Positions 32,983-43,141 of a stretch of 64,000 nucleotides of DNA are shown here, in pieces. The DNA comes from a virus. The position numbers and the translations under genes are program-made. The stretch's first letter is position 1. Every line of letters starts with the position of its first letter. The notes under the pieces are model-generated. The model was not told the origin of the DNA, made no database searches, and worked only from the letters and a program-made list of their open reading frames with translations. The stretch covers positions 34,046 to 98,045 of the IMG/VR virus record IMGVR_UViG_3300046463_000247; one strand, 5' to 3'.

Positions 32983-33011
32983 GCAATCGACTCCTTCGAT
33001 TGTTGCTGGTT

Positions 33012-34064
33012 TCAGGCCGTAGCCTTGGATTTGGTTTTGCCGCGTTCGAGGATCGCGACGGACTGCCCGGGGAACACCTGCCACTCACCCAGCACCTTCG
33101 TGAAGCCCGGGGGCAAGGTGACCTGCTTGCCCGGCTCGCCGTACTTCTCGGCCTGCATCTGCTTCTCGTGCGGGTACTTCTTCAGCGCGCCCAGCGCTTC
33201 GACCTTGTACCAGTCGCAGTACTGGCCGAATTCGTCAGGCCACTCGGTGCGTGCGGCCATCGCAAGCGCGTACAGGTCGGAGAACTTCTTCGCGAAACTG
33301 TGCGACTCGTACATGTCGATCAGCAGTTCGACGCACTGGCCGCTGCGCTGCACGTCGAGAATCTTGTAGATCAGTGCCGAGTAGTCGTCGTACAGCATGC
33401 CCTTGTTGAACATTGGGCCGTTATTGTGCGCGAGCGTCCACGCGGTGTCGATCATCACCTCCAGGCTCGTCTCGCCGTTCACGAAGCGCGAGAGCGTCTG
33501 TGCGATGTTGCCCCACGGCTTGCCGCCGTAGCCACCCGAGAAGTTGCCCTCGTTGAACAGGAACGTCAGCCCCTCGCAGTACGGGCCAAGCTGCATTTCG
33601 GGCGGGTTGTCGAGTAGCGCTTCCACCGCAGTGTGCGATCCGCCGCCCTTGATCAGCTTGTTAAACGCGTAGAAGGCGCTGCCGTACTTCTCTTTCGCCA
33701 GCTTCGGCGTGGCTTCGTCCTTCACGTGGCGCGACTCGCGGGTCGTGATCAGCAGCATGTAGTGGAACAGCCGCAGCCCCTGCGACGCGAGGGCCGAGGT
33801 GTAGGCTTCCATGACCTTGCGCGCCAGCGGCGTGAGGAACTGGTGTCGGGTGAAACGCTTCTGGACGACTGCCGCCAGGTGATTCAGCGCGTAGAAGCGC
33901 AGCGCGTCGGTGTCCGGCTCGGCGAGGCCACCGGGACCTCCGTTCTCCTTGTACGTTTTGCAATTGATTGCAACGCGGGAGACGAGGTAATGGCCGACGC
34001 CTTGCGGGTGCATCTGGGGAGCGCTGAGGTAGTACGCGAGGGTATTCTTGTCTTCGAATCGCAT
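33012..34064 (-). CDS. Conserved-looking hypothetical protein (350 aa) in the dikinase/phosphatase module
   Basis: Motifs TRESRH, GGYGGKPWGNIA, HNNGPMFNKG; has its own promoter and hairpin SD. Confidence 0.7.
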   Translation of the reverse strand: MRFEDKNTLAYYLSAPQMHPQGVGHYLVSRVAINCKTYKENGGPGGLAEPDTDALRFYALNHLAAVVQKRFTRHQFLTPLARKVMEAYTSALASQGLRLFHYMLLITTRESRHVKDEATPKLAKEKYGSAFYAFNKLIKGGGSHTAVEALLDNPPEMQLGPYCEGLTFLFNEGNFSGGYGGKPWGNIAQTLSRFVNGETSLEVMIDTAWTLAHNNGPMFNKGMLYDDYSALIYKILDVQRSGQCVELLIDMYESHSFAKKFSDLYALAMAARTEWPDEFGQYCDWYKVEALGALKKYPHEKQMQAEKYGEPGKQVTLPPGFTKVLGEWQVFPGQSVAILERGKTKSKATA

Positions 34065-34097
34065 GGCGGCTTCACTCCTTGAATGCCGATCTGATAC

Positions 34098-34589
34098 TTA
34101 GGATTCTACCACAAACGACCCGTTTGTCAAACATGTGCGAAATTGAAACAGCGCCTTGATCCGGGCTTTCCGCAGCATTTTCTTCACTTCAGCCGGGATC
34201 GGGTAATCCAGCACGAACTGGTACTGGTCATCCGTCTCGACCGCGTGCGGGTAGTAATGCTCGCGCACGTACTCGACCGGCATCTTCACGCCAAAAGCCT
34301 TCGCCAGGATCGACAGGAACAGCCCTGTGCGGCCCCGTCCCGCGTAGCAGCCCACATACACCTGCTGCCCGGCGAGGACCGCTGCGACCGCCTGCGTCAG
34401 CCCGGCATCGAGCAGGTCTTTCGACGGGACACTGAAGTCCTGCGTCGGAATGTCAATGTCGGCCTTTGCGCCGATTTCCTTCGCCATCTTGACGCCGACC
34501 ATGTTCGCCGGACGCGCCAGATACGGACCGCCTGCGACCGTGAAGTGCTTCAGACCCATGAGTACCGGGAGATTGAGGGTTCCGTTCAT
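34098..34589 (-). CDS. CX5R (PTP/dual-specificity) phosphatase 1
   Basis: IPTQDFSVP acid loop; VYVGCYAGRGRTG P-loop; AVET..Q motif. Confidence 0.85.
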   Translation of the reverse strand: MNGTLNLPVLMGLKHFTVAGGPYLARPANMVGVKMAKEIGAKADIDIPTQDFSVPSKDLLDAGLTQAVAAVLAGQQVYVGCYAGRGRTGLFLSILAKAFGVKMPVEYVREHYYPHAVETDDQYQFVLDYPIPAEVKKMLRKARIKALFQFRTCLTNGSFVVES

Positions 34590-34920
34590 GCTTGTGCAAC
34601 TCCTTTGCGTGTGGCCCGTAGACCGTTTTGATTTGACCAACATAGCCGCAGTGCTTGCAGCCTTCTCCTTCACAGTGCTCGCATTCGTCCCACGCGGTGA
34701 GACTGGTGCGGGCGCTCAACTGGCGTTCCGGGGGCGCGACGTGGGTCATGCTGTGCACCCGCGCGCCGTCCACTTCGAACAGCCAGTTATTGAACCTGCG
34801 GTTGCCGCGTTCGTGCGTGATCAGCGCGGCGCACCGGACCATCTGCTGCAATGCTTCGGGGGTGATACTCTCGGCAGCGCAGACACGCGCCACCTGGTCA
34901 GATTGTTCTAATGCGGACAT
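34453..34920 (-). CDS. Hypothetical protein with a DnaJ-type Zn finger
   Basis: CEHCEGEGCKHCG motif; the 3' end overlaps phosphatase 1. Confidence 0.55.
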   Translation of the reverse strand: MSALEQSDQVARVCAAESITPEALQQMVRCAALITHERGNRRFNNWLFEVDGARVHSMTHVAPPERQLSARTSLTAWDECEHCEGEGCKHCGYVGQIKTVYGPHAKELHKHERNPQSPGTHGSEALHGRRRSVSGASGEHGRRQDGEGNRRKGRH

Positions 34921-35155
34921 GGGTCGGGGCCTCGAAAGCCAGTCGGGGGCGCTGGCTCGCGTCGTGATGCCGAAGCCCGTAACTGACGAATGTTTCATCC
35001 ATGAGTTCGACCCGCGCCTGATCCGTGACCTCGTACGTGCGACCGTTGAATTCGACCGTCACCGAGTTGCCCCGCTGCACGGCCACCACGTTCAGCACGC
35101 CGTTCGTGCCCACCTGAATCTTCGTGCCGCGCGAAACGCCAATACTAAGTGCCAT
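34898..35155 (-). CDS. CsrA/RsmA-like small beta protein (apparent tandem duplication)
   Basis: By eye: N-half MALSIGVSRGTKIQVG..VLNVVAV.RGNSV resembles CsrA beta1-4, and C-terminal RLAFEAPTHVRIR resembles CsrA RIGVNAPKEVSVHR. Confidence 0.55.
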   Translation of the reverse strand: MALSIGVSRGTKIQVGTNGVLNVVAVQRGNSVTVEFNGRTYEVTDQARVELMDETFVSYGLRHHDASQRPRLAFEAPTHVRIRTI

Positions 35156-35579
35156 CGGGTTGCTCCATCAGGTCAGTACATTCATCTGTCAGTGCCCAGA
35201 CACTGCCACCGGGCAGGTTCTTGCGGGCGTGTACCCGGTACACCAGTTTCATGCCCATGAGTACGGTCAGGCAGGTCGATGCCTCGCTTACAGTGAAGCG
35301 CTCGCCTCTGGCTTGCAGCCGGGCGGCAACTTCCCCCGAGTTTGGCTCGTCCAGTTCGGCGAGCATTGCCAGCGTCTTGTACAGGCGGGAGCCGACCTTG
35401 GGGAGCCGTACCCGCGCCTTGTCCGACACTTTCTCGGGGATCACTATCTCCTGCAAGGTGGTTTCCATGACCTTGTTCAGTCCGCACAGACAGTGGAGTA
35501 CGAGGTCAGGACCATCCCATCGCTGGAAAGCCCCGCCAGAGCCGCACTTCGGACACTTCAATCGAGTCATATTCGCCAC
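35145..35579 (-). CDS. Zn-ribbon plus winged-helix putative transcription regulator
   Basis: CPKC...CLCG ribbon; SGEVAARL...TVSEASTCL..L..MKLV.R...GGSVWALT winged-HTH pattern. Confidence 0.6.
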   Translation of the reverse strand: MANMTRLKCPKCGSGGAFQRWDGPDLVLHCLCGLNKVMETTLQEIVIPEKVSDKARVRLPKVGSRLYKTLAMLAELDEPNSGEVAARLQARGERFTVSEASTCLTVLMGMKLVYRVHARKNLPGGSVWALTDECTDLMEQPDGT

Positions 35580-35614: not shown

Positions 35615-37570
35615 TCAGTCGTGGAGCAACTTCGAAACGACAACACTTTCACTCAGAAACGACAGCCCGTTAGGATTGAGCGTGCCGGGCGCGGCCATCA
35701 GGGACAGTCCGTCCTCTTTCTTCTTCCAGGCCATCACCTTCTGCACTGCCGCGCTGTCCTCGCCGGACCACATCAGCACGTTCGACGCGAGCACCAGTTG
35801 CTCCAAGGTCTCGGCCACGCTCAGGCGCGGCAGCTTGGTCTGGCACGTGGTGATGATGCACACGCGGTCCGGGTTCAGCGACACCGACTCCAGCAGGTGT
35901 ACGAGGGCCTGTTCGCGATCCGTCTCGACCGGCGCACCGAACGGCTGAAGGAAAGCGGCCTCGGCCTCTTCGAGCTTCAGCGTCGTGTCGATGTACAGGC
36001 AGGCGGTGGCGTCGTACATGCCCTTCACGAGCTTCGCGAGGCGGTTCTGCGGCCACGTCAGCTTGTCGGCAAGGCGCAGATAGCCCACCGTACCCGAGCC
36101 CGTCTCGTGGCTGATCGGCACCGCGTTCAGCGACTCGAACATCAGGCGGCGGAACTCAGCCAGCGTCGCGTCCTGCGAGCCCGGCACGACCGGCACTTCG
36201 GTCTTCCACACGCGCCCCGTCGCGCCGTCGATGCTCACGCTGCTGCCCTCGGGGAACTGGTTGATCGACACCGACAGGCCCACCACACACGGCTTGTTCA
36301 TCGAACGCGCCACTACTGCGGCGTGCGAGGTCGAGCCGCCCGTCATGGTCAGAATCCCGCGTGCCGCGTTCATTCCGGCGATGTCATCCGGGGTCGTTTC
36401 GCTGGTTACCAGGATACACGGCTTTTTGCAATCAATTGCAGCCTGTGCCGACCGCACGACTACGCCGGTCACGATGCCCGAACACGCGGCGATGCCGGTA
36501 AAGTCCGGTTTCGTGGTGAAAGACGGGTCGATCACGTCGAGCTTAGCGCGGTCGTAGTCGCTGGCCTTCACGCGCTCGAACATCTGCGGCAGCGTCAGCA
36601 TTGCCTCCTTGTGCATGTCCAGCGCGATCTTCACCGCAGCCTTCGCGCTGCGCTTGGCGTTGCGGGTTTGCAGGATGTACAGCTTGCCGTCCTCGACCGT
36701 GAATTCCACGTCCTGCACGTCACCCTTCAGCGATTCCAGCCGCAGCACGGTCTCGATCAGTTCATCGTAGACCGGGTGATTCCAGTCCTTCATCGCGGCG
36801 AGCTTCAGCGGCGTCTTGATGCCTGCCACCACGTCCTCACCCTGCGCATTCGGCAGAAACTCGCCGGTCACGACGTTCTCGCCGGAATCAGGGTTGCGGG
36901 TGAACAGTACGCCGGTTGCCGACTGGTCGTTGAGGTTGCCGAACACCATCGCCTGGATCACCACGGCGGTGCCCCAGTCGTCGGGGATATTGTTCATCTT
37001 GCGGTAGAAAACCGCGCGTTCGTTGTTCCAGGAGTTGAACACCGCCTCAATCGCCTCGGCGATCTGCTGGTCGGTGTCGGGGAACGCGGTGCCGGTCATG
37101 TACGAGTAGATCGACCGGTATTCGTCCGGCGTCGTGCAGTCCTCGAACTCGTGGCGGTCGATGCCCTTGACCACGTTGCCGAACATTTCGATCAGGCGGC
37201 ATTCGCTGTCGGTCACGCAGTGTGCGCCGAGCTTGCTGATCCAGACGTTGCGCGTCGCGCCGTCGATGCCGACGTTCAGCACCGTGTCCATCATGCCGGG
37301 CATCGAGACGCGGGCACCGGAGCGCACCGACACGAGCGGCATGTGGCCCATGTACTGCTTGAAAAATGCGCGGATGTCCGGCAGCGCCTTCTGGATTGCG
37401 GCGCGCACGTACTCGGGGTTCTTCATGTATTCGACGCACACTGTCGTCGGGATGATCAGCGCGGGCGGGACAGTGATGCCGTTCTGCTGCATCCACCACA
37501 GGCCGAAGCCCTTGCCACCCAGGCGCTCGGCGTTGAATTCGCCCTTGGAATAAACGGAAAAGAGTTCCAT
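35615..37570 (-). CDS. Pyruvate phosphate dikinase-like protein lacking the PEP/pyruvate-binding TIM barrel
   Basis: LGGKG, VSVRSGARVSMPGMMDT, QAMVFGN, NAQGEDVVAG, LYILQTR and the phospho-His motif TSHAAVVAR; the last ~190 aa lack PPDK barrel motifs. Confidence 0.9.
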   Translation of the reverse strand: MELFSVYSKGEFNAERLGGKGFGLWWMQQNGITVPPALIIPTTVCVEYMKNPEYVRAAIQKALPDIRAFFKQYMGHMPLVSVRSGARVSMPGMMDTVLNVGIDGATRNVWISKLGAHCVTDSECRLIEMFGNVVKGIDRHEFEDCTTPDEYRSIYSYMTGTAFPDTDQQIAEAIEAVFNSWNNERAVFYRKMNNIPDDWGTAVVIQAMVFGNLNDQSATGVLFTRNPDSGENVVTGEFLPNAQGEDVVAGIKTPLKLAAMKDWNHPVYDELIETVLRLESLKGDVQDVEFTVEDGKLYILQTRNAKRSAKAAVKIALDMHKEAMLTLPQMFERVKASDYDRAKLDVIDPSFTTKPDFTGIAACSGIVTGVVVRSAQAAIDCKKPCILVTSETTPDDIAGMNAARGILTMTGGSTSHAAVVARSMNKPCVVGLSVSINQFPEGSSVSIDGATGRVWKTEVPVVPGSQDATLAEFRRLMFESLNAVPISHETGSGTVGYLRLADKLTWPQNRLAKLVKGMYDATACLYIDTTLKLEEAEAAFLQPFGAPVETDREQALVHLLESVSLNPDRVCIITTCQTKLPRLSVAETLEQLVLASNVLMWSGEDSAAVQKVMAWKKKEDGLSLMAAPGTLNPNGLSFLSESVVVSKLLHD

Positions 37571-37661
37571 CTGGCTATTCACTCCTTGAATTGGCCGTTG
37601 AGTCATCAGAATAACACACCGGCCCGGATTGTCAAACAGTATTTCAGGCCGGTGCCGGTCG

Positions 37662-42860: not shown

Positions 42861-42898
42861 AAAAAAAGACCCGAACCACTTCGAATATGGCTCGGGTC
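42861..42898 (-). terminator. Rho-independent terminator
   Basis: GACCCGAGCCA-loop-TGGTTCGGGTC-TTTTTTT on the minus strand. Confidence 0.8.
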
Positions 42899-43056
42899 GA
42901 AAGTCCGGTTGAGGGGTAAATGACAACCGGGGACCACCGGATGCCGCCGCGCGACCATTGTGCGCTTGCAGCAAATTCTGTTCAGTTCAGGGGACGGGTA
43001 CTCCGCATCGGCGATGTCGCCGGAATCAGACCGCACTCCTTGCAGGCCCTGTATGG
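42861..43056 (-). ncRNA. Candidate structured small RNA (~195 nt)
   Basis: Promoter TTTACA-16-TACACT (43062-43089), five consecutive hairpins, intrinsic terminator at 42861-42898, no credible ORF. Confidence 0.55.
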
Positions 43057-43141
43057 GCTACAGTGTAACACAAGCGACCGGGTTGTAAACACGAGGCGTC
43101 CGCCAATCGCCAGCGGGTGTGCGCCAGACCGCATATTGGCC

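Follow-up and report, generated by a model that had tools for sequence, protein, structure and literature searches.

An expanded CsrA-like phage protein, its putative single-chain fold and candidate Shine-Dalgarno hairpin targets

The 64,000-nucleotide (nt) stretch analysed here (the window; positions 34,046 to 98,045 of IMG/VR virus record IMGVR_UViG_3300046463_000247) is part of a 98,045-bp viral record that carries direct terminal repeats. The GC content of this genome is about 62%, and almost every gene lies on the minus strand. One of these genes encodes a protein of 85 amino acids (aa) that begins with MALSIGV, ends with RLAFEAPTHVRIRTI and, judging from the sequences of its relatives, very probably descends from CsrA. 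It had been proposed in an initial annotation as a single-chain, tandem CsrA/RsmA-like protein, and the open reading frame (ORF) has since proved to be a real gene with a Shine-Dalgarno (SD) sequence and a large family. The gene and its immediate neighbours are given below.

34898..35155, minus strand: expanded CsrA-like gene, an ORF of 85 aa with ATG start and TGA stop
35163..35166, minus strand: GGAG SD of the CsrA-like gene, unstructured, 7 nt 5' of the ATG, as read from the sequence
35145..35579, minus strand: upstream gene, 144 aa, with an N-terminal Zn-ribbon and a winged-helix-like C-terminal part (domains assigned by eye; Pfam matches weak)
34453..34920, minus strand: downstream gene X, with its ATG at 34920, inside the last 7 codons of the CsrA-like gene

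There is an 11-nt overlap between the CsrA-like gene and the upstream gene, whose 3' end contains the SD, and X starts 23 nt ahead of the stop of the CsrA-like gene. The upstream Zn-ribbon/winged-helix gene occurs in about half of the related loci. When the window protein itself was used as query against Pfam and PHROGs, nothing meaningful was returned, with no CsrA match at E ≤ 1. A PF02599 search of the phage's own genome found no canonical CsrA, and an Rfam scan of the whole window matched no family, CsrB/RsmZ-type RNAs included.

Homologues of 113 aa were found by tblastn in the Stenotrophomonas phages DLP5, DLP3 and Summit, together with a weaker one in Vibrio phage LV6. A three-sequence profile searched against 1.84 billion representatives recovered 413 proteins at E ≤ 1e-3, of which 148 reached E ≤ 1e-10; counted as clusters at 50% identity, the family has at least 413. 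Nearly all members are 85-100 aa long and are matched end to end. A scan of 185,579 species genomes with the single pattern MALSIGV found no relative. In a Pfam scan covering 24,736 families, PF02599 (CsrA) was matched by 69 of 129 family members at E ≤ 0.1 (best 2.7e-6), and no other Pfam family was matched by more than two of the 129. The matches always place the C-terminus of the member on profile positions ~26-51, which comprise beta4, the Ala-Pro turn, beta5 and the helix start, bearing out the beta4-AP-beta5 likeness that had been noticed by eye in the C-terminal half. Some members even keep the start of the CsrA helix (..ILREELY, ..INRRELYEQ) together with an N-terminal MALILGV.

Profile-profile comparisons were made with hhalign against a 66-sequence CsrA alignment, 40 column shuffles serving as nulls. 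The N-terminal half (residues 2-37) aligns to CsrA 1-36 with P 0.0016, and its score of 16.5 exceeds all 40 nulls, narrowly (null maximum 15.7); the CsrA likeness claimed for the first ~37 residues is thereby upheld, by that narrow margin. The C-terminal half (residues 46-82) aligns to CsrA 10-43, that is beta2-beta5, with P 0.0015. The strongest match was obtained from a spliced family profile, in which residues 28-67 were removed and residues 1-27 and 68-86 kept. This profile aligns to CsrA 1-43, spanning CsrA strands 1-5, with a probability of 92.7% and E 4.4e-7, at a score of 32.0 against a shuffle maximum of 12.9. The match is robust to the choice of splice, ten boundaries giving E 2.5e-7 to 2e-4, and is lost when control deletions remove either conserved end (E ~1e-3). 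Two helix-bearing members compared with CsrA in unspliced form reached E 5.4e-5. In addition, sibling clusters in the ESM Atlas (viral, 88-100 aa) have PF02599 recorded on 27-91% of their members, with models at template-modelling (TM) values of 0.80-0.83, and the same fold is predicted for at least a dozen viral proteins in BFVD, of which one bears the name 'Carbon storage regulator'. Taken with the Pfam matches of the relatives, the spliced and unspliced profile matches and the Atlas siblings support the relationship to CsrA. A sequence search of the PDB, with the window protein and with an 11-sequence profile, found no CsrA; its sole result, an Ig-like adhesin repeat, was judged spurious.

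The canonical CsrA chain has 61 aa and is active solely as an interdigitated homodimer with two RNA sites, and bridging of two sites is central both to mRNA repression by CsrA and to its sequestration by sponge RNAs. In the dimer, two five-stranded chains interdigitate into two five-stranded sheets, and the RNA surfaces are formed by the parallel beta1 and beta5 of opposing monomers, with L4 and R44 being critical (PMC7652899). AlphaFold2 (AF2), run on a 129-sequence alignment, predicted the window protein as a compact, helix-free monomer of nine strands (residues 2-6, 12-15, 19-26, 31-36, 39-44, 49-52, 55-60, 71-75 and 82-84), with a predicted local distance difference test (pLDDT) value of 93 and a predicted TM score (pTM) of 0.82. 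Nine strands correspond to two CsrA chains less one beta5. Contacts were also sought by direct-coupling analysis of 150 filtered sequences; the result is noisy, column 28 is an artefact, and unfiltered mean-field runs were discarded for gap and fragment artefacts. A ladder pairing beta1 in parallel with the last strand ranked 7 of 3530 (z 4.3), carried by the pairs 3-82 (z 6.7), 1-80 and 5-82, and one pairing beta1 antiparallel to the RLAFE strand ranked 13 of 3530 (pairs 2-75 and 4-73). The expected local hairpins were likewise recovered. As far as these couplings go, both placements of beta1 fit the geometry of the CsrA dimer.

The comparison with CsrA that the initial annotation had suggested was thus positive at the level of profiles and empty at the level of fold, where Foldseek of the AF2 model against the PDB returned nothing at E ≤ 1e-3. 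The neighbours found among solved structures were fusexin and class II fusion domain I (Z 6.5-7.4), CcsBA (Z 7.8) and FHA domains (Z 5.1-5.5). FHA was considered because of the phosphatase genes nearby; its matches cover 74-75 residues at a root-mean-square deviation of 2.8-2.9, within the stated background range for such Z-scores, and no FHA profile was among the 25 listed of the 29 Pfam families matched by any of the 129 members at E ≤ 0.1. Because a CsrA chain is one half of an interleaved dimer, chain-wise searches are blind to this fold, and the absence of CsrA from them is not evidence against the relationship.

Conservation in the family is highest in residues 1-7 (M-A-L-S-L/I-G-V) and 71-84 (R-L-A-F-E-A-P-R-x-I-x-I-x-R), with further conserved positions at G10, I13, G16, V22, P52, V54 and G59. 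The two maxima coincide with key positions for RNA contact in CsrA, namely L2/L4 of beta1, A36-P37, V40/V42 and R44: L3 is conserved in 97% of the family, L/I5 in 96%, A76 in 100%, P77 in 95%, I/V80 in 96% and I82 in 98%, and the position equivalent to R44 of CsrA is Arg in 93% and Lys in 6% (R/K 99%). The window protein retains L3, I5, A76, P77, V80 and I82. The region of the would-be second site (~residues 38-50) is less conserved and acidic (T-D-x-E-R-x-E).

The CsrA-like gene has a fixed place in a gene module. In all 13 loci first collected the order is PPDK-like dikinase, (Zn-ribbon/winged-helix protein), CsrA-like gene, X, phosphatase 1, p350, phosphatase 2 and p315, and phages of Stenotrophomonas and Vibrio, as well as many uncultured phages, carry the dikinase/phosphatase/p350 module. 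With p350 as the IMG/VR query, 80 loci (L177-L256) were retrieved, and the family hidden Markov model (HMM) matched ~1 kb upstream of p350 in 73 of them. A divergent member in L212 raises this to 74 of ~76 informative loci, the upstream DNA being too short to judge in four of the 80. The sole lineage that lacks the CsrA-like gene (L242, IMG/VR 3300027844_001270; L244, 3300036814_000892) retains dikinase, p350 and phosphatase 2 and is also devoid of X and phosphatase 1.

Leaders of this module bear short hairpins that present the SD in their loop. Those in the window, with p350 itself, are as follows.

37577..37591, minus strand: SD hairpin ATTCA-AGGAG-TGAAT in the leader of the PPDK-like dikinase
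34596..34608, minus strand: SD hairpin GCAA-AGGAG-TTGC in the leader of phosphatase 1
34071..34083, minus strand: SD hairpin TTCA-AGGAG-TGAA in the leader of p350
33012-34064, minus strand: p350, 350 aa, PHROG 20946, widespread in phages and well conserved
32984..33002, minus strand: SD hairpin CAATCGA-AGGAG-TCGATTG, 7 bp, in the leader of phosphatase 2; the hairpin named in the initial annotation
~43031..43045, minus strand: orphan AGGAG-loop hairpin with no usable start codon, the small RNA (sRNA) decoy candidate of the initial annotation

Of 94 AGGAG occurrences across the phage genome, 21 sit directly between complementary arms of 3-7 bases, compared with ~1.5 expected if flanks paired at random (1/4 per position). 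All 21 hairpins lie on the coding strand, and 20 of them are 3-12 nt 5' of a start codon. Each loop is closed by an A-U pair, most often as part of CA...UG. Besides the four on dikinase, phosphatase 1, p350 and phosphatase 2, the hairpins mostly stand 5' of small uncharacterised genes, and one precedes a tail gene. The window hairpins consist of the SELEX core CA-RGGA-UG plus one extra G.

The hairpins also recur in related phages. The motif CAAGGAGTG is present in 13 of 13 family-bearing records, 87 times in 923 kb and essentially always on the coding strand, compared with 18 occurrences, besides the selecting one in each, in 38 control phage contigs (2.55 Mb). In module loci, hairpin SDs have a median density of 6.4 per 10 kb on the coding strand versus 0.9 on the other strand. 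A GGA-loop hairpin of at least 3 bp is found in the p350 leader in 43 of 51 distinct sequences, and of at least 4 bp in 32 of 51, above all 300 flank shuffles. The stems covary (TCA/TGA, TTCA/TGAA, CTCA/TGAG, CCCA/TGGG, CACC/GGTG, AAACC/GGTTT and, in LV6, GGC/GCC), and many p350 leader loops read C-ANGGAG-G, matching the RsmE/CsrA consensus CANGGANG. In LV6, the dikinase and p350 leaders carry GGC-AGGA-GCC tetraloop hairpins. The p350 leader of L242/L244 has a promoter and a plain AGGAGG SD and forms no hairpin. The co-occurrence of gene and hairpin SDs across relatives, a check suggested in the initial annotation, is seen in the motif counts, in the p350 leaders and in the lineage that lacks both. 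In a reverse test, 41 IMG/VR contigs contained the 15-mer ATTCAAGGAGTGAAT, and the family is encoded by just one of them, which was known beforehand. One hairpin on its own is thus no marker of the gene, and these contigs were reused as density controls.

A CsrA-derived single-chain protein with one RNA edge, acting as a putative reader of the phage's SD hairpins and regulating a phage regulon, is the explanation favoured here, and it is given about an even chance of being right as a whole. Within it, the single-chain pseudo-dimer with one beta1/beta5' RNA edge is a likely arrangement, with which the strand count, the coevolution signal and the conservation pattern all agree. Residues 1-37 would form beta1-beta4 and, after a tight turn, residues 38-85 would form beta1'-beta5', so that nine of the ten strands of the dimer come from one chain. 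Residues 37-38 would be a two-residue turn linking beta4 with beta1', two strands that lie side by side in the CsrA dimer. Sheet I would be composed of beta1, beta4', beta3' and beta2', and sheet II of beta1', beta4, beta3, beta2 and beta5'; the CsrA beta-sandwich would in this way be closed on itself by a single chain. The composite RNA-binding edge would place the N-terminal beta1 (MALSIGV) beside the C-terminal beta4'-AP-beta5' (RLAFEAP..I.I.R), and the second edge would have been lost because the first repeat has no beta5. The protein may then bind GGA-containing SD loops of short hairpins on phage leaders, its targets being the dikinase, both phosphatases, p350 and ~16 further genes of the genome. 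One protein per hairpin would compete with the 30S subunit, such that translation of the phage regulon is repressed or timed, and this action would probably be exerted jointly with the zinc-knuckle protein X, which is encoded just downstream and fused to it in some phages. Each phage leader carries one hairpin, which suits a one-site protein.

Several observations weigh against this explanation. At the level of sequence, the window protein itself has no Pfam CsrA match, and the best PF02599 match inspected individually, at 25.1 bits over profile positions 31-51 only, stays below the gathering score of 27. The RNA-contacting Arg that had been pointed out near the end of the protein is a family feature which fails in the window member: it has Thr84 at the R44-equivalent position, essential in CsrA, with R81 and R83 nearby. 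R6 and R7 of CsrA are replaced by Gly6-Val7 in beta1 across the family, and the net charge is +2 in the window protein and +1 in the family median. Binding of the SD hairpins is plausible, and less so for the window protein itself, with its Thr84. At the level of fold, the halves show no internal repeat signal when compared with each other by hhalign (E 0.12), the expected beta2-beta5' coupling was not seen (z 1.7), and the VIA-align wide search and the VIA second look gave generic beta-sandwiches only (Z ≤ 7.8), with no CsrA chain listed. The fused pseudo-dimer with one site that had been proposed at the outset is accordingly backed by the nine strands, the alignment of the C-terminal half, the coevolution and the conservation on beta1 and beta4'-beta5', and opposed by the dissimilarity of the halves, which makes origin by duplication indistinguishable from origin by insertion. 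As to the hairpins, the loops of this genome are 5-nt AGGAG closed by A-U and not the canonical hexaloop. All family-bearing phages share one module, so the co-occurrence of gene and hairpins is confounded by common descent and does not consist of independent events, and the comparison lacking the CsrA-like gene is a single lineage (L242/L244). Moreover, the hosts of known relatives (Stenotrophomonas, Vibrio and probably Burkholderia) own CsrA/RsmA, which could bind the hairpins. The idea that the protein is the cognate of the AGGAG hairpins is supported by the co-occurrence of the two, host CsrA being an equally available binder.

The availability of host CsrA leads to a possible, if unlikely, alternative, namely that the protein is a CsrA-derived RNA binder aimed at the host, where it would mimic or compete with CsrA/RsmA on mRNAs or on CsrB/RsmZ-type sponges, while the phage hairpins are read by the host protein. 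Canonical phage CsrA genes are indeed common (88 phage records, 382 IMG/VR stretches), and manipulation of host pathways, CRISPR-Cas among them, has been suggested for them (PMC8450108); the hairpins resemble generic high-affinity CsrA sites (PMC7652899) that host CsrA could bind. Nevertheless, the gene is fixed in one phage module whose own leaders bear the hairpins, the sole lineage that lost the gene also has no p350 hairpin, and the bridging of two sites that CsrA performs on many host targets and sponges (PMC7652899) would be beyond a single-site protein. Loss of RNA binding altogether is considered quite unlikely: here the dikinase/phosphatase/p350 module would have recruited the CsrA-derived fold as a subunit with a protein-binding or regulatory role, perhaps together with X. 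Such a role would suit the strict synteny with dikinase, two phosphatases and p350 in the loci examined, the fusions found in nature with X and with the upstream winged-helix protein, the near-neutral charge, the loss of R6/R7 and, in the window member, of the R44 equivalent, and the weak complex prediction of CsrA-like protein with X (0.38 versus a control of 0.00). It does not account for conservation that is strongest exactly on the elements of the CsrA RNA surface, for an Arg/Lys conserved on the surface in 99% of members with no obvious structural role, or for CsrA-type hairpins on the ribosome-binding sites of the module itself.

The dissimilarity of the halves bears on a further reading, that of a CsrA with an insertion of three to four strands which still forms a homodimer or higher oligomer with two RNA sites, the AF2 monomer then being misleading. 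Insertion is as likely an origin as duplication when the halves are not detectably homologous, and coevolution is blind to the difference between intra- and inter-chain contacts. What makes this reading improbable is the confident, compact monomer (pTM 0.82) with all nine strands placed, the strand count of a CsrA dimer minus one, the two-residue turn from beta4 to beta1' that self-closure needs, and the one hairpin per phage leader. The view that the CsrA likeness is convergent or due to chance, and that the protein belongs to some other lineage of small beta-sandwiches, such as an FHA-like or viral domain-I-like one, is close to refuted. It could draw on the solved-structure neighbours, which are only generic sandwiches (Z 5.1-7.8), and on the failure of the PDB sequence search to find CsrA. 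Those Z-scores, however, are at the stated background level, whereas 69 of 129 members match one specific Pfam family among 24,736, the profile-profile match (E 4e-7) is robust to the splice boundary, and the start of the CsrA helix is retained in some members. Returning to the reader of phage hairpins, a more elaborate version is regarded as quite doubtful, in which a monomeric, single-site CsrA descendant would run a private phage circuit with A-U-closed AGGAG pentaloop operators that may be orthogonal to host CsrA. X, with an N-domain weakly reminiscent of RelE/ParE-type mRNA interferases, would be its physically coupled partner, a one-hairpin decoy RNA might titrate it, and the circuit would gate the dikinase/phosphatase phospho-transfer module.

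Bacteriophage T4 encodes RegA, a repressor of its own set of phage mRNAs that binds at ribosome-binding sites. The parallel with the CsrA-like protein is one of functional analogy alone, the fold and the recognition element being unrelated. The closer comparison is with CsrA/RsmA/RsmE (PF02599; RsmE-hcnA complex, PDB 2JPP). Common to both are the beta1-beta3 and beta4-Ala-Pro-beta5 signature with the R44 equivalent in 99% of the phage family, the predicted adjacency of beta1 and the last strand, and the putative targets, GGA loops of 3-5 bp hairpins over the SD, many of which fit CANGGANG or CA-RGGA-UG. Unlike the 61-aa homodimer, the phage family is predicted to have one 85-100 aa chain of nine strands, mostly without the C-terminal helix (a monomer by model), and a single RNA edge in place of two, with R6/R7 missing, a near-neutral charge and a sub-gathering Pfam score. 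Canonical CsrA/RsmA genes of phages and plasmids, as in Pseudomonas phage F116 and Burkholderia phage DC1, share with it the phage-borne CsrA-family gene and the expected translational control; they differ in encoding 55-70 aa, in being 60-90% identical to bacterial CsrA and in being tied to no single module. The presumed targets of such homologues are host pathways (Campa et al. 2021, PMC8450108). The survey of phage CsrA demanded 50% HMM coverage (PMC8450108), a threshold at which the expanded, putatively single-chain family would be missed. With one of its surfaces inactivated by R44A, an engineered heterodimeric CsrA binds a single site and has lost the capacity for bridging (Mercante et al. 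2009, as summarised in PMC7652899). To the extent of that summary, both it and the phage protein have one working RNA surface, predicted in the case of the phage protein; the heterodimer is a two-chain laboratory construct, while the phage protein would be a natural single-chain version with its own single-hairpin leaders.

The CsrA label is already present in the annotation of some family members. In Vibrio phage vB_VneS_J26, a relative of LV6, ORF99 carries the annotation 'CsrA' and has a dikinase and a tyrosine phosphatase as neighbours (PMC12038007); the neighbourhood is the same as in the window, the likeness being known from the annotation and not from the J26 sequence. UniProt A0A6J5RUQ1 is named 'Carbon storage regulator'. 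Single-chain architecture, module linkage and hairpins are not analysed there, and no account of a CsrA that is monomeric or single-chain turned up in full-text literature searches. New here is the expanded, probably single-chain architecture together with the fixed place in the dikinase/phosphatase module. If the proposal is true, a natural single-chain version would show how a domain-swapped dimer can be converted to a monomer, by duplication and fusion or by insertion. It would also constitute a minimal 1:1 reader of GGA hairpins, of use in the study of CsrA recognition and as a compact orthogonal repressor of translation, as well as a testable case of a phage that encodes a regulator plus its operators on its own ribosome-binding sites. 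In addition, a first functional handle would be provided on a conserved, unexplained module of PPDK-like dikinase, two Cys-phosphatases and p350.

Fusions join the CsrA-like domain to the products of both neighbouring genes. In Vibrio phage LV6 it forms one 155-aa ORF with an X-like domain (L176:4001-4468, OP918262.1), between the dikinase and a tyrosine phosphatase, and CsrA-like/X fusions are also found in the metagenomic proteins P0049, P0100 and P0138. An in-frame fusion of the upstream winged-helix protein to the CsrA-like domain occurs in one metagenomic protein, P0006. The divergent member in L212 (L212:3778-4173, IMG/VR 3300020045_002087) is nearer to CsrA at both ends (MSLVLTFRDG..., ...DAPGLPILRSKLYE) and is fused straight to a DnaJ-like multi-CxxC zinc-finger tail, without the N-terminal domain of X. 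In the window, the conserved part of X ends at ~34606 and comprises two helices, a beta region with an NRRF/Y..W.F motif and a CxxCxGxGCxxCG zinc knuckle; the ORF extends ~136 nt into the phosphatase-1 gene in another frame. A word-based homologue search for X returned nothing. The AF2 model of X is mediocre (pLDDT 69.8), and in this low-confidence model the N-terminal 63 residues have weak structural matches (Z 2-4.8), mostly to toxins of the RelE/ParE/MqsR/YoeB type. Complex prediction of the CsrA-like protein with X gave a weak median score of 0.38, the best control scoring 0.00; at least 93% of contacts agree between runs and the partner pLDDT is at least 85, in a score range (≤ 0.60) into which just 7 of 80 solved complexes fall, along with both mismatched pairs that passed. 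The predicted complex and the RelE/ParE resemblance are offered as leads only.

The family profile also matches 15 repeats of P0011, a metagenomic protein of 2477 aa, through profile positions 11-44. These matches, like that of the window protein to the region-II Ig-like repeats of MpAFP in the PDB, probably reflect compositional or beta-strand pattern similarity and not homology. The orphan AGGAG-loop hairpin lies in a short promoter-to-terminator unit (42861-43089, minus strand) with one or two GGA motifs, whereas CsrB/RsmZ sponges have many. In most cases p350 is preceded by a TATACT-type promoter of its own, ~30 nt 5' of the SD hairpin. In the 37560-37640 region of the window (minus strand), a promoter-like site TTGACA-N16-TATTCT ends just 5' of the ATG at 37606. 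Because the hairpin SD at 37577-37591 serves an ATG at ~37570, and given the position of this promoter, the dikinase probably starts at ~37570 (651 aa) and not at 37606, and it is probable that the dikinase gene heads an operon that includes the CsrA-like gene.

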